A stretch of DNA of 51,587 bases, taken from an uncultured Acholeplasmataceae bacterium (lineage in GTDB: Bacteria; Bacillota_I; Bacilli_A; Acholeplasmatales; Acholeplasmataceae). Both the position numbers and the translations under genes were made by a program. The notes beneath the pieces are model-generated. The model did no database searches and was not told where the DNA came from. It was given only the letters and a program-made list of their open reading frames with translations. The stretch is taken from contig CAZRWC010000001.1 in assembly GCA_964603705.1 (NCBI GenBank), positions 1 through 51,587 on the forward strand. Reading direction: 5' to 3'. Positions 3,415-44,003 of the stretch are shown piece by piece; positions within the stretch are counted from its first letter, which is position 1, and every line of letters starts with the position of its first letter.

Positions 3415-3855
3415 CTGAAAATAGCAATTGGCAGTGACCATGGTGGTTACGAACTAAAAGAAGCAATACTTAAATATTTGTTAAGTAGAAAATATGAAGT
3501 AAAGGATTTTGGAACCGATAGTTTAAATAGCGTTGACTATCCAAAGTTTGGTTTTTTAGTTGGAGAAGCTGTAACTAAATTAGGTTATGATTTAGGAATA
3601 GTCTTTTGTGGAACAGGGATTGGTGCTAGTATTGCAGCCAACAAAGTATTAGGAGTAAGAGCCGCCTTAATTTATGATTTAAATACGGCACATTTAGCCA
3701 AAGAACACAATAATGCTAACGTTATAGCAATTGGTGGCCGGACAACTAGCACTGCTTTGGCAATTCAAATGATAGATGAATTTTTAAACACTAAATTTGA
3801 AACTAGACATCAAAAGCGTCTAGACTTATTGAATGATTATGAAAAAAAGTTATGA
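3415..3855 (+). CDS. rpiB: Ribose-5-phosphate isomerase B (LacAB/RpiB family), apparent CTG start
   Basis: The listed ORF starts at an internal TTG (3478). The in-frame upstream sequence reads (L)KIAIGSDHGGYELKEAILKYL, which is the conserved RpiB N-terminus. AGGAGG at 3402-3407 lies 7 nt before CTG 3415. No in-frame ATG, GTG or TTG exists between the upstream TAG stop (3349-3351) and 3478. Confidence 0.8.
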   Translation: MKIAIGSDHGGYELKEAILKYLLSRKYEVKDFGTDSLNSVDYPKFGFLVGEAVTKLGYDLGIVFCGTGIGASIAANKVLGVRAALIYDLNTAHLAKEHNNANVIAIGGRTTSTALAIQMIDEFLNTKFETRHQKRLDLLNDYEKKL

Positions 3856-4483
3856 GAAACCAAAGTTGGTTGTATTTGAACATCCATTAATTAGCCATAA
3901 GATGGCAATTATTAGAGATAAAAATACTTCAACAAAAGAATTTAAAGAATCAGTTTCTGAAATTGGTGCACTGATTACTTATGAAATCACAAGAGATTTA
4001 AAGACTAAACCTAAAAAAGTTGCTACACCGATTGAATTAACAACTTGTAATGTTTTAAATGAACCGGTTGTAATCGTGCCAATTTTAAGAGCAGGTTTAG
4101 GGATGGTCGAAGGAATTATTAATATTATTCCAACTGCAAAAGTTGGACATATTGGTTTGTATCGAAATGAAGAAACCTTAGAACCAACCGATTATTACTC
4201 TAAATTTCCTGATGAAATAAAAAATGGACTTGTCTTATTAATAGATCCAATGCTTGCTACAGGAGGTAGTGCTGCAAGAGCGATTGAAATATTAAAAAAA
4301 CAAGGTGCAAAAAGAATTAAGTTTGTCGGTTTAGTTGGTTGCCCAGAAGGAATAAATAAACTGCAAACTACGCATCCTGATGTGCCAATTTATTTAGCAG
4401 CATTAGACTCATACTTAAACGAAGATGGATATATCGTGCCTGGACTAGGCGATTGTGGAGACCGATTATTCGGTACAAAGTAA
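3833..4483 (+). CDS. upp: Uracil phosphoribosyltransferase
   Basis: 216 aa with HPLISHKMAIIRD, ILRAGLGM and the PRPP loop LLIDPMLATGGSA, plus the C-terminal YIVPGLGDCGDRLFGT. The start may be ATG 3833 or 3839; it overlaps the rpiB 3' end. Confidence 0.95.
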   Translation: MIMKKSYEKPKLVVFEHPLISHKMAIIRDKNTSTKEFKESVSEIGALITYEITRDLKTKPKKVATPIELTTCNVLNEPVVIVPILRAGLGMVEGIINIIPTAKVGHIGLYRNEETLEPTDYYSKFPDEIKNGLVLLIDPMLATGGSAARAIEILKKQGAKRIKFVGLVGCPEGINKLQTTHPDVPIYLAALDSYLNEDGYIVPGLGDCGDRLFGTK

Positions 4484-40824: not shown

Positions 40825-41959
40825 ATGAGTAAAGTTTTTAGTGTTATCAAATATGAGGGGGCTAACGATACATTTGTATGGAAATCTCCAATAGAAAACT
40901 TTAACACTGGGTCACAGTTAATTGTTCATGAGTCGCAAGAAGCCTTGTTTTTTTTAATGGACAAGCATTAGACCTTTTTGGTCCAGGAAGATATACTTTA
41001 GAGACACAAAACATTCCGCTACTTAGAAAAGCATTAAATAGAGCAACAGGTGATGAAACACCTTATACTTGTTCTATTTATTTTATTAATAAGGTAGAGC
41101 AAATGGCAATTAAATGGGGAACAGATAGCCAAGTTCATTATATTGATCCAACCTATAATTTCCCTTTATCAATTGGTGCATCCGGTGAAATGTCAATTCG
41201 TGTTGAAGATTCTAGAAAACTGATTTTAAAGTTAGTTGGAACTGAAAGAAATTTAACACAAGATTCTTTAACAAGAAAAATAAGGGCTTTTTTAATGGTC
41301 AAAATGAAACCACTTTTAGCAAGAACGATGCTAAAAGGTGAGGTTAGTATATTCGCAATAGAAAGTCAAATCGATATCTTATCAGAAGTAATACACGCAT
41401 CATTGTTAAATGATTTTAATGATTATGGTTTAGAATTGGAAAGATTTTTTATAATAAATATAGCAAGGCCGATGGTGAACGTACATTTGAAAAATTCAAA
41501 GATTTATATTATAGACAATACGGTGATGTAGCAGAAGCAAAATTAAGACAAGAAATAGGGCTGATTGATGAAACTACAGCAGCAAGAAGAAGAGTAATAG
41601 AAGCTGAATCAATTGCTGCTAAAAGAACTCTAGAGGGTTATACTTATCAAGATGAAAGAGGTTTTGATGTCGCTGAAAAAGTTGCTGAGAATGAAGGCGT
41701 AGGAACTATGGCAAGTACTGGAATTGGATTAGGGCTTGCCGCAGGAGTAGGTGTTGGAGTAGGCGGTAAAGTTGCAGGAATTACATCTGATGCTCTTGGA
41801 GTAACTTCAGGTAGTCCACAACCACAACCAGCACCAATTGACCCATTGGAAGCATTTAAACAAAAAGTAGAAAAACTAAAAATAATGAAAGAATCTGGTC
41901 TTATATCAGATGAAGAATTTGCAAAATTAAAACAAGAACTTTTAGCAAAAATATTATAA
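40825..41959 (+). pseudogene. SPFH/Band-7 (YdjI-like) protein with C-terminal SHOCT domain, disrupted by two single-base frameshifts
   Basis: Three consecutive frames read as one protein. Fragment 1 is MSKVFSVIKYEGANDTFVWKSPIENFNTGSQLIVHESQEALFF, with a stop at 40969-40971. Fragment 2 is NGQALDLFGPGRYTLETQNIPLL...MAIKWGTDSQVHYIDP...GLELERFFI, with a stop at 41529-41531. Fragment 3 is SKADGERTFEKFKDLYYRQYGDVAEAKLRQE...EGYTYQDERGFDVAEKVAENEGVG, then a Gly-rich linker, then a SHOCT-like ESGLISDEEFAKLKQELLAKIL. The first shift maps to the T8 run at 40948-40955. The second maps to 41423-41464, which contains the T6 run at 41445-41450. SD ggagg precedes the ATG at 40825. Confidence 0.8.
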
Positions 41960-41972
41960 GGAGAACTAAGAC

Positions 41973-42650
41973 ATGAAAATTAATAAAAACAAAACATTAT
42001 ATTTTATTGTAATAGCATTGTTAATTGGATTATTTAATCTAATAGCATTTTTAATACCATTTCCAAAAAGTGTTAGTTTTTGGGTAGGGTATGGTTTTAT
42101 TACTTTATCGGCCTTAATAAGTGCAGTTGTTTTATATTTCATATTTGACAAAAAAGATATGAAAAGCCGTTTTTATGGTGTTCCTTTAATATATATATTA
42201 AGGAGTTATATTGTTTTACAATTTATTTTAGGAATAGTTCAAATGGCTGTGCCAGCTTTTACTTATACATATGCAATAGTAGTAAATGCAGTAATATTAG
42301 TTTTTACTATTGTTGGATTGATTGGATTAACTGCGGGTAAAGAAGAAATAGAAAGAGTCGATGAAAAAGTTCAACAAAAAGTATTATATATTCAAGAAAT
42401 TCGAGTAAAGCTTGAAAGCGTAATCGATAATACAAAAAATAAAGAAGTATTAAAAGAATTAAATAAGCTAAAGGATTTAGTTAGATATAGTGATCCAATG
42501 AGTAATGAAAAAGTTGAATCACTTGAAGAAAAAATATTACAAAATGTAAATTTATTATCATCTTTGAAAGATGATGAAAAACCAGTTAAAATAAAAGAGA
42601 TAACAAAACAAGTAAATGAAAGAAATAGGCTTGTTAAAATATATAAATAG
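41973..42650 (+). CDS. Unknown membrane protein: four TM helices plus a ~100-aa charged coiled-coil tail
   Basis: 225 aa with SD ggag 9 nt upstream, starting 13 nt after the SPFH stop. There are four hydrophobic segments in aa ~8-125, then KEEIERVDEKVQQKVLYIQEIRVKLESV...; no recognisable family motif. Confidence 0.7.
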   Translation: MKINKNKTLYFIVIALLIGLFNLIAFLIPFPKSVSFWVGYGFITLSALISAVVLYFIFDKKDMKSRFYGVPLIYILRSYIVLQFILGIVQMAVPAFTYTYAIVVNAVILVFTIVGLIGLTAGKEEIERVDEKVQQKVLYIQEIRVKLESVIDNTKNKEVLKELNKLKDLVRYSDPMSNEKVESLEEKILQNVNLLSSLKDDEKPVKIKEITKQVNERNRLVKIYK

Positions 42651-42659
42651 AGGGATAAT

Positions 42660-44003
42660 ATGGCAATATATAAGTGTAAAGTATGTGCTGGTTCATTAAA
42701 TGTAAAAGATGACCAAACAACAGTAACCTGTGAATATTGTGGCACACAACAAGCATTACCAAAGTCTAATACCGATTTGATTCTTAATTTATATGATAGA
42801 GCAAATCATTTTAGAAGAAATAATGAATTTGATAAAGCGGAAAAAGTTTATCAACAAATATTAATTGAAGACCCGAGTGATGCTGAAGCCTACTGGTCTT
42901 TAGTTTTGTGTAATTATGGTATTGAATATGTAGAAGACCCTAAAACCAGAAAAAGAATACCAACAGTAAATAGAGCCCAATTCACTTCAATATTTAATGA
43001 TGAGAACTATAAAAAAGCATTAGAATATGGCGATGGTTATCAAAAAGACATTTTTGAATCGGAAGCAAAAGTTATTAATGAAATCCAAAAAGGGATTTTA
43101 TCGGTTTCTCAAAAAGAAGATCCGTATGACGTCTTTATTAGTTATAAAGAAACTGATGAACAAGGCAGAAGAACTAGAGATTCTGTTTTAGCTAACGACT
43201 TGTATCATCAACTGACTAAAGAAGGATTTAAAGTGTTCTTTTCAAGAATTACTTTAGAGTCAAAGCTAGGTATGGAATATGAACCATATATATTTGCGGC
43301 ATTAAATAGCGCGAAAGTTATGGTAGTATTAGGAACAAAGCGAGAATATTTTAATGCTGTTTGGGTGAAAAATGAATGGAGTAGGTTTTTAGCTGTAGTT
43401 AGGGATTCAAAAGGTGAAAAAATATTAATACCAGCATATAGAGATATGGATCCATATGACTTGCCGGAAGAATTTAGTCATTTACAATCTCAAGATATGA
43501 GTAAATTAGGATTTATGCAAGATTTAATTAGAGGAATTGAAAAAATAATTCCTAATTTGAAAAAAAATAAAAAAGATAACTCAAATAATAAAGATGACGA
43601 TTTAATGCTTAATGAATTTTACAAATCTGCTAATAATTATTTGAAAAAAAATAAAATTAAAAATGCAGTTATGATAAGAAATAAAATGTTATCCATCAAT
43701 CCAAATACGTCATATTTGTTTTTGTTAGATGAACATATAAATTTTCATATAGAAAAGTCAAAAGAGTTATTTAGGGATATTTTAAATTATGTATATAGGA
43801 CGCAATCATTGAGTATAAATTCTATACAAAACGAGTTTGATTTGGGTTTTGATGAGGTTGCTTTAATTATTCAAGATATGGAACAAGCTAGTATTATTAC
43901 TCCTAATTTGGGTGTAAAAGCAAGAAAAATAACATATTTGTATAGCATTGAAGAAATAGATAAGATGGTTGATATTTTAATTTCAAACAAAATAAAAGTT
44001 TGA
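42660..44003 (+). CDS. Zn-ribbon / TPR-like / TIR-domain protein with C-terminal FtsK-gamma-like winged helix
   Basis: 447 aa with SD agaggg, starting 9 nt after the previous stop. The N-terminus has CKVC...x16...CEYC (a zinc ribbon), then FDKAEKVYQQILIEDPSDAEAYWSLVLCNYGIEYVED (TPR-like). The TIR core is YDVFISYKETDEQGRRTRDSVLANDLYHQLTKEGFKVFFSRITLE...YEPYIFAALNSAKVMVVLGT...AVWVKNEWSRFL (about aa 155-290, candidate catalytic Glu239 at 43374-43376). A Lys/Asn-rich linker follows. The C-terminus ELFRDILNYVYRTQSLSINSIQNEFDLGFDEVALIIQDMEQASIITP aligns by eye with the E. coli FtsK gamma domain ([45 protein letters not shown]). Confidence 0.85.
   Translation: MAIYKCKVCAGSLNVKDDQTTVTCEYCGTQQALPKSNTDLILNLYDRANHFRRNNEFDKAEKVYQQILIEDPSDAEAYWSLVLCNYGIEYVEDPKTRKRIPTVNRAQFTSIFNDENYKKALEYGDGYQKDIFESEAKVINEIQKGILSVSQKEDPYDVFISYKETDEQGRRTRDSVLANDLYHQLTKEGFKVFFSRITLESKLGMEYEPYIFAALNSAKVMVVLGTKREYFNAVWVKNEWSRFLAVVRDSKGEKILIPAYRDMDPYDLPEEFSHLQSQDMSKLGFMQDLIRGIEKIIPNLKKNKKDNSNNKDDDLMLNEFYKSANNYLKKNKIKNAVMIRNKMLSINPNTSYLFLLDEHINFHIEKSKELFRDILNYVYRTQSLSINSIQNEFDLGFDEVALIIQDMEQASIITPNLGVKARKITYLYSIEEIDKMVDILISNKIKV

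Follow-up and report, generated by a model that had tools for sequence, protein, structure and literature searches.

The subject of this report is a gene at positions 42660 to 44003 of a 51,587-nucleotide (nt) stretch of DNA from an uncultured Acholeplasmataceae bacterium (GenBank assembly GCA_964603705.1, contig CAZRWC010000001.1; the whole stretch is called the window below). The encoded protein of 447 amino acids (aa), here the TIR-gamma protein, joins the zinc ribbon, TPR-like and TIR head of a large bacterial family to a winged helix of the FtsK gamma type, and the face by which FtsK gamma domains bind DNA and XerD has turned from basic to acidic in it. Sequence and predicted structure favor a reading in which the fold has been kept while DNA reading has been lost or changed. 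As to function, the account toward which we lean, and which we hold tentatively, is that an FtsK-derived gamma domain has been swapped in as a specificity module and, with its DNA- and XerD-reading chemistry gone, may serve for protein binding or docking in a soluble TIR protein. The gene is laid out as follows.

42660 to 44003, plus strand: TIR-gamma gene, encoding a zinc ribbon, TPR-like module, TIR domain, linker, second TPR, FtsK-gamma winged helix and C-terminal helix.
42669 to 42752, plus strand: zinc ribbon, aa 4-31, with C6, C9, C24 and C27.
42774 to 43115, plus strand: TPR-like N-terminal module, with helices at aa 39-85 and a conserved beta-hairpin and helical region at aa 86-152.
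43131 to 43505, plus strand: TIR domain, aa 158-282, with the Glu239 codon at 43374-43376 in W235-x-x-x-E239.
43548 to 43595, plus strand: Lys/Asn/Asp low-complexity linker, aa 297-312, read directly from the sequence; predicted local distance difference test score (pLDDT) below 50.
43596 to 43733, plus strand: second TPR hairpin (TPR2), aa 313-358, the final family-homologous segment.
43755 to 43934, plus strand: FtsK_gamma winged helix-turn-helix, aa 366-425, whose wing keeps K420, R422 and K423.
43815 to 43877, plus strand: alpha2-loop-alpha3 face of the gamma domain, aa 386-406 (INSIQNEFDLGFDEVALIIQD), charge-inverted.
43947 to 43985, plus strand: C-terminal helix, aa 430-442 (SIEEIDKMVDILI), corresponding to helix 81-97 in the model of the C-terminus.

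A first-pass annotation of this DNA, made by eye, had read the C-terminal block as an FtsK gamma domain with a winged-helix fold, in which the segment DLGFDEVAL is the counterpart of the basic RIGYNRAAR of FtsK. This was borne out on each point. The Pfam model FtsK_gamma (PF09397) matches with an E-value of 2.7e-11 and 43.5 bits (cut-off 30.6) over positions 2-61 of the 63 in the profile, and when phmmer aligns aa 369-417 with gamma structures from E. coli and P. aeruginosa (2J5P, 2J5O and 2VE8), the two segments are paired in the same way. An AlphaFold2 (AF2) model of aa 350-447 has a mean pLDDT of 77.8, with 88-92 in the gamma core. When the gamma model was searched with Foldseek, the top nine matches were chains of 2VE8 or 2VE9, and 2J5P was also matched. 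Target template modeling scores against FtsK-gamma crystal and nuclear magnetic resonance structures were 0.79-0.86, with root-mean-square deviations of 1.3-1.9 Å, figures to be read with the caveat that the input alignment for the model was made up of gamma domains. The hydrophobic core, Q1288, G1294, M1305, E1306 and the wing Arg (E. coli numbering) are all conserved. The rest of FtsK is missing: the protein matches neither FtsK_SpoIIIE nor FtsK_alpha, and the window contains no FtsK fragment elsewhere.

What sets this domain apart is the face formed by helix alpha2, the following loop and helix alpha3. In E. coli numbering, the substitutions are R1289N, Q1290E, R1292D, N1296D, R1297E, R1300L, and E1303Q, and the window residues are N391 (at R1289), D394 (R1292), D398 (N1296), E399 (R1297), L402 (R1300), and Q405 (E1303). 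For comparison, we used 88 other gamma domains from the 54 nearest relatives found by HMMER among 1.84 billion representatives. The net charge of the face is -5 here, against a mean of +2.2 in that set (range -1 to +5, n = 88) and +3 in E. coli, in agreement with the earlier proposal that basic DNA-contacting residues had been replaced by acidic ones. Position 1297 is Arg or Lys in 76 of the 88 domains, position 1289 in 67 of 88, and position 1296 is never Asp. Neither the acidic replacement nor the domain matches are due to chance.

The residues of E. coli FtsK that read the FtsK-orienting polar sequences (KOPS) are reported to be N1296, R1300 and E1303 (Sivanathan 2006; Löwe 2008), and neither these nor the flanking basic residues are kept in the window gamma domain. 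One FtsK gamma face binds both KOPS DNA and XerD (Keller et al. 2016, PMC5052618). In E. coli, R1289 forms a critical salt bridge to E184 of XerD, and R1289E abolishes XerD activation (PMC5052618); the position of this XerD-activating Arg is N391 in the window protein. Because the face shared by KOPS and XerD binding is inverted, both known activities are predicted to be lost, and with an acidic face the domain would no longer read DNA as FtsK does.

It is conceivable, though improbable in our view, that the wing and the remaining polar residues still let the gamma domain bind DNA, with no specificity or with a new motif, and that it would in this way tether or activate the TIR domain on the nucleoid or on foreign DNA, by analogy with gamma domains fused to nucleases. 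Among the nearest gamma relatives are fusions with zinc ribbons, with an AAA_24 ATPase, and with nucleases of the Mrr_cat and HNH types, which suggests a general DNA-targeting module. The wing basic residues are kept (R1320 is conserved in 74 of 88), and canonical gamma domains are found in TIR-FtsK fusions (P0140 and P0188, taken up below). However, D394, D398, E399, and D406 stand in the recognition helix and alpha2-alpha3 loop, where basic residues are absent and the net charge is -5, while all nuclease-fused gamma domains examined keep G(Y/F)(N/A/S)R. Single mutations of N1296, R1300 or E1303 in the E. coli protein are reported to be enough to abolish KOPS reading (Sivanathan 2006).

Gamma domains are also found in small proteins, seven of which (P0166, P0143, P0139, P0135, P0169, P0142, and P0132) carry one to three FtsK_gamma copies. 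Fusion partners in such proteins include CxxC zinc ribbons, Mrr_cat/HNH nucleases, an AAA_24 ATPase and BspA-type leucine-rich repeats (LRRs). These fusions to nucleases and zinc ribbons point to gamma as a mobile module that is widely reused outside FtsK. In the window protein, the tail after the gamma domain (..SIEEIDKMVDIL..) resembles by alignment the C-terminal tail of Firmicute-type FtsK (..EELEKIL..), and this resemblance suggests that what was captured is the 3' end of a gene of ftsK-like or small gamma-domain type.

Among the data searched, the TIR-gamma fusion is confined to one lineage. A word-index search of 5.8 billion clustered proteins with the C-terminal 152 aa gave no match, and neither did a scan of JGI metagenomes with the same query. 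HMMER against the 1.84 billion representatives returned distant gamma domains only (best E-value 1.5e-8) and no orthologues, and a GTDB scan returned relatives of the head module and no orthologous C-terminus. Two family loci, L002 and L078, seemed to extend the homology to aa 400-416; these are alignments of the TPR region, and no gamma domain is present in them.

The head of the protein (aa 1 to approximately 300-370) is 60-82% identical to more than 8000 proteins, as measured to P0001-P0120, and matches at least 556 loci in species-representative genomes. The hosts are mostly gut and rumen Clostridia, and occasionally Bacteroidaceae or Sphaerochaetaceae. In databases, the relatives (e.g., P0023 and P0091) are named only 'TIR domain-containing protein,' and our literature searches found no description of either the family or the TIR-gamma fusion. 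The window protein matches all of the more than 100 invariant columns of the family alignment, and at highly conserved head sites it deviates 10 times, mostly conservatively. A phage-borne origin of the module was considered and set aside, with 1 match in IMG/VR against at least 556 genomic matches.

Within the head, the first-pass annotation had recognized a CxxC...CxxC zinc ribbon at aa 6-27, a TPR-like module and a Lys/Asn low-complexity linker, and each of these stands. All four Cys of the ribbon are invariant in a 50-sequence family alignment; Pfam gives weak matches only, at aa 4-31, and AF2 models four short strands with pLDDT values of 82-91. The TPR-like region is weak by sequence (TPR_16, E-value 1.5e-5, aa 45-86; the TPR matches, which together span aa 44-86, are under the Pfam cut-off), and AF2 places confident helices at aa 39-85. 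This N-terminal module is family-specific and rich in invariant residues, and a related TPR copy recurs 3' of the TIR domain in family members. When window positions 42747-43187 (aa 30-175) are compared with the post-TIR TPR region of the relatives, identity is 25-40%, with E-values down to 4e-6. Such similarity suggests an internal duplication in the TPR regions that flank the TIR domain. The linker was found at aa 297-312.

The family is constant in its head and variable beyond it. Its members usually go on with extra TPRs and a coiled coil, then a single membrane-spanning helix and a domain of DUF6273, RCC1 or LRR type. Predictions place one transmembrane helix at aa 435-645 in 58 of the 68 complete relatives, and all but 2 of the 68 are 546-1253 aa long, against 447 aa for the window protein, which has no transmembrane segment (top 19-residue Kyte-Doolittle mean 1.0). 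A survey of the C-termini attached to this head, as the first-pass annotation had advised, revealed a variable slot: DUF6273 in 43 of 67 relatives, RCC1 in 10, LRR_5 (BspA-type LRR) in 3, others besides, and FtsK_gamma in none. A gamma-domain hidden Markov model likewise found no gamma domain in 80 family loci or their flanks. In P0049, a C-terminal domain of ribosomal protein L7/L12 (PF00542) has been inserted 3' of the TIR domain, an unusual addition to the variable region on its cytoplasmic side.

The junction with the gamma domain is abrupt. Family homology by tblastn reaches aa 355-370, the end of TPR2 (helices at aa 311-346, pLDDT 85-93), and the gamma domain starts directly afterwards. 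TPR2 has a net charge of +2 here, against a family mean of -4.7. Two neighboring modules thus show reciprocal charge inversion, TPR2 (aa 313-358) being basic and the gamma face (aa 386-406) acidic. The basic shift of TPR2 is compatible with docking on the acidic gamma face, as we infer from the charges.

In the genomic context, the two genes upstream of the TIR-gamma gene are the following.

40825 to 41959, plus strand: SPFH (Band_7_1) and SHOCT pseudogene, in three frames, with two 1-nt deletions.
41973 to 42650, plus strand: membrane-protein partner, 225 aa, with 4-5 hydrophobic helices and a cytoplasmic coiled-coil tail.

In 57 of the 80 family loci surveyed, the TIR gene has two partners next to it, one for an SPFH (Band_7_1) protein whose tail is a zinc ribbon or SHOCT and one for a multi-pass membrane protein of approximately 230 aa. 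These partners mostly lie directly upstream of it, and the order SPFH, membrane protein, TIR is also that of the window. Homologues of the membrane protein, which has no Pfam match, adjoin the TIR gene in 57-60 of the 80 loci. Its stop codon comes 9 nt before the TIR start, and a GAGGGA Shine-Dalgarno sequence, 4 nt 5' of the TIR-gamma ATG, overlaps it. The open reading frame that follows (42660 to 44003, plus strand) starts with ATG, is complete and uninterrupted, and lies exactly where the first-pass annotation had put it. Both the TIR-gamma protein and the DNA of its gene are identical in five independent assemblies.

The SPFH partner has become a pseudogene only recently. Along its whole length it lines up with intact homologues of 374-380 aa, and it is broken by one deletion in a T8 tract at approximately 40948-40955 and a second at ccg(g)at. 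Both breaks are identical in the five independent assemblies, for which reason an assembly or sequencing artefact was set aside. Because T9 would restore the frame at the first site, phase variation is conceivable. The surrounding genes of the window are housekeeping genes (dnaE, two pfk genes, uvrB, recG, V-type ATPase); the neighbors of the TIR-gamma gene are the membrane-protein gene, the SPFH pseudogene, pfkA and uvrB.

Other loci of the family are more elaborate. In 15 of 80 loci (L009, L011, L012, L019, L033, L035, L044, L046, L051, L053, L058, L061, L067, L072, and L075), the SPFH gene is preceded on its own strand by a gene for a tyrosine recombinase (approximately 280 aa, Phage_integrase), mostly as its direct neighbor. 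Two to four tandem TIR paralogues are found in 27 of 80 loci. Recombinase and tandem paralogues may together reflect phase or cassette variation. In the window, positions 4207-4329 on the minus strand give a weak tblastn match to the C-terminal part of this family-associated recombinase (43% over 42 aa, E-value 6e-4). This match is distant from the TIR locus and antisense to an annotated open reading frame at 3833-4483. Between the membrane-protein and TIR genes, some loci have a variable slot with a 141-aa TIR-only gene, DUF4365, DUF2971 or unknown small genes (L067, 7552-7977; L019, 7486-8001; L009, 7114-8004). This slot, which resembles a defense hotspot, is empty in the window.

In several loci, the accessory variability determinant (Avd) and reverse transcriptase (RT) genes of a diversity-generating retroelement (DGR) lie downstream of the TIR gene. 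Two repeat pairs were located.

L009, 10424-10550 and 11117-11243: repeat pair, with the template between the Avd and RT genes.
L033, 10312-10435 and 11026-11149: repeat pair, with the template between the Avd and RT genes.

The repeats were aligned for L009, and those of L033 are arranged alike. When the 3' end of the L009 TIR gene is compared with the template repeat, all mismatches fall at template adenines, which is the DGR signature, and family members with DUF6273 C-termini are DGR targets. The window holds no RT or Avd homologue and no DUF6273, and hence the TIR-gamma gene is not counted among these targets.

The main rival to the favored reading, and a serious one even if we consider it less likely, is decay. 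By this account, a streamlined genome of low GC content is losing its SPFH/membrane-protein/TIR cassette piece by piece, and the acidic changes are drift in a functionless module. A deletion or illegitimate recombination would have brought together two gene ends, the 5' 1.1 kb of the TIR gene and the 3' part of a gene of ftsK-like or small gamma-domain type. The SPFH partner with its two 1-nt deletions in all assemblies fits this account, as do the loss of the family-typical C-terminal domains, the limitation of the fusion to one clonal lineage, and a gamma domain that departs further than all others from the residues usual at conserved positions (1297 and 1296). However, 447 codons have stayed uninterrupted in an AT-rich genome, where stop codons arise easily, and the head keeps all family-invariant residues with only the 10 mostly conservative deviations. 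The gamma hydrophobic core is intact and confidently modeled, and the substitutions are directional, with five acidic or neutral changes on one face, not scattered. The charge of TPR2 has shifted in the complementary direction. Finally, no transmembrane, ectodomain or FtsK-motor remnants flank the gene.

The chemistry of the head depends on its TIR domain. Pfam TIR_2 matches aa 158-282 with an E-value of 5.5e-13 (49.9 bits against a cut-off of 28), and the domain starts with YDVFISY. In W235-V-K-N-E239-W, aligned with the 'WCQYEL' of the TLR15/TLR2 TIR structure, Glu239 stands opposite the motif Glu. Both motifs, YDVFISY and WVKNEW, had been picked out in the first-pass annotation, and its candidate glutamate falls in the catalytic position upon alignment. 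This W-x-x-x-E position, in helix alphaC, is that of the catalytic Glu of SARM1 and plant TIRs, and E239 is conserved in at least 90% of the family. Catalysis by this TIR domain is plausible. In the AF2 model, strands and helices alternate at aa 158-224, and aa 226-309 are poorly predicted (pLDDT below 50).

There is also a small chance that the TIR domain is a non-catalytic scaffold, as in TLR/MyD88, and that the protein is an adaptor in an SPFH-organized membrane-stress or envelope pathway (PspA/YdjI-like) and no immune effector. A profile search of the TIR region against PDB sequences aligned the TIR of TLR15/TLR2 only and no bacterial NADase, and the closest solved TIR by sequence is that of an animal receptor. 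TLR2 bears the equivalent Glu yet has no detectable activity in vitro (bioRxiv 10.64898/2026.04.20.719644), and the Glu is consequently necessary but not sufficient for TIR activity. In addition, Band_7_1 SPFH proteins with zinc-ribbon or SHOCT tails have been linked to Psp-type membrane maintenance (PMC11237479), and no PADLOC model matches the SPFH or membrane-protein partners. On the other hand, the family has kept the glutamate of W-x-x-x-E almost without exception, and its loci show hallmarks of conflict loci, namely tandem paralogues, DGR diversification and a variable slot with TIR-only and DUF4365 genes. The Psp comparative-genomics paper reports no Toll/IL-1R-type TIR partner (PMC11237479). 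As the scaffold alternative concerns TIR chemistry, it overlaps with the other readings, and the likelihoods given to the four readings set out so far are not additive.

The reading that we prefer, the swapped specificity module, would work as follows. The family would couple a constant cytoplasmic head (zinc ribbon, TPR-like module, TIR, TPR2) to an exchangeable C-terminal specificity module, probably a sensor, and would work alongside an SPFH scaffold, at the membrane or close to it. In the window lineage, a gamma domain with its tail, taken from the C-terminus of an FtsK-like protein, would have come to stand in place of the variable module. This domain would have retained its fold while its KOPS/XerD face was turned from basic to acidic. 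The gamma domain would then be a protein-binding or intramolecular docking module that controls TIR assembly, and the TIR, once oligomerized, could use Glu239 to cleave NAD+ or to produce a signal from it. A role in conflict or defense would fit the loci of the relatives.

Several observations weigh against this account. The gamma domain scores 43.5 bits in Pfam, against 48.7-87 in the scanned gamma-bearing relatives with one or two copies matched, and its three wing basic residues are kept, so some DNA contact is possible. The broken SPFH partner could mean that the whole system is decaying. Since the five assemblies are identical in DNA, they are no independent evolutionary samples, and with no orthologue of the C-terminus in the databases searched, selection on the fusion is not measurable. 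The full-length AF2 model has a predicted template modeling score of 0.48, with low confidence in the TIR half; this mediocre confidence makes it unusable for inter-domain contacts, and a Foldseek search with it returned generic TPR proteins only. The family has had no experimental study, and its PADLOC and NCBIfam matches are weak and limited to the TIR core.

To our knowledge, the FtsK gamma fold is known only as a chromosome-polarity reader and XerD activator. If the preferred reading is true, this fold is reusable as a non-DNA-binding module, and the window protein is a natural charge-reversal mutant of the dual KOPS/XerD surface. If the decay reading is true, the finding is a mere curiosity of genome reduction. 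The analysis suggests a bacterial TIR protein with a swapped sensor module, and that the larger unexplored subject is the SPFH-linked family. It points to an abundant, unstudied gut-Firmicute cassette consisting of an SPFH scaffold, a membrane protein and a zinc ribbon-TPR-TIR protein, whose variable ends in some cases comprise DGR-hypermutated domains beyond a transmembrane helix, in a topology that recalls Toll-like receptors. This SPFH-TIR cassette is a candidate surface-sensing immune or conflict system, and the soluble 447-aa variant would be a handy minimal construct for probing the conserved head.

Compared with known systems, the window domain shares with FtsK gamma (2J5P; 2VE8/2VE9; PF09397) the winged-helix fold, the conserved core and, in Firmicute-type FtsK, the following C-terminal helix. 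Unlike FtsK gamma, it has no alpha/beta motor and its KOPS/XerD face is charge-inverted. With the SPFH-linked family of gut Clostridia, the window has the head and the upstream gene pair in common; unlike that family, its protein has no transmembrane helix and ends in a gamma domain, and its SPFH partner is a pseudogene. The first-pass annotation knew of no characterized protein with a TIR domain and an FtsK-gamma module, and we also found no characterized example. Two rare protein clusters from Clostridia, P0140 (MBR2987653.1) and P0188, are the only others found that combine TIR_2 and FtsK_gamma, in a different architecture (TIR, gamma, FtsK alpha/motor, gamma, TIR; 892 aa) whose FtsK alpha/motor part is complete and which has no zinc ribbon-TPR head. 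Their gamma domains are canonical and basic (GYARAAR, GYSRAAH), unlike that of the window protein. A TIR domain is present in 2 of the 120 best relatives of P0140. The motor region of the P0140 type matches the PADLOC models SspH and mad8, and a protein of this type may be an uncharacterized translocase-based defense protein.

Among named defense systems, PADLOC gives weak matches to the TIR core only (PDC-S66, ThsB), and the NCBIfam Thoeris model NF058526 scores 32.8 against a cut-off of 220, again on the TIR core only, so that the protein is not classed as Thoeris. With all of these matches below threshold, it is assigned to no named defense system. DGR-targeted TIR-containing conflict proteins of other architectures have been described in multicellular bacteria (Doré et al. 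2024, PMC10907252). With these and with Thoeris ThsB-type TIRs, the window protein and its family share a logic in which a TIR effector or signaling domain is combined with a variable, sometimes hypermutated sensor. Unlike them, the window protein has no STAND, CHAT or MoxR component and no adjacent ThsA-like effector gene.

A last comparison is with plants. In TIR-type nucleotide-binding LRR receptors with integrated decoys, such as RRS1-WRKY, a TIR protein bears a copy of a host DNA-binding domain whose original job is not used. The likeness is by analogy only; the window protein has no NB-ARC or LRR domain. There is a slim chance that the gamma domain is an integrated mimic of the module by which the host FtsK gamma interacts with XerD, with inverted charge and no DNA-reading chemistry left. 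It would capture a basic partner, for example a protein of a phage or mobile element that targets FtsK-Xer, or dock on the basic TPR2 of a neighboring subunit. Its binding or release would then bring about TIR oligomerization and NAD+ cleavage. If true, this mimic would be a bacterial counterpart of plant integrated-decoy TIR receptors, and one that sits among TLR-like single-pass TIR receptors with retroelement-hypermutated outer domains.

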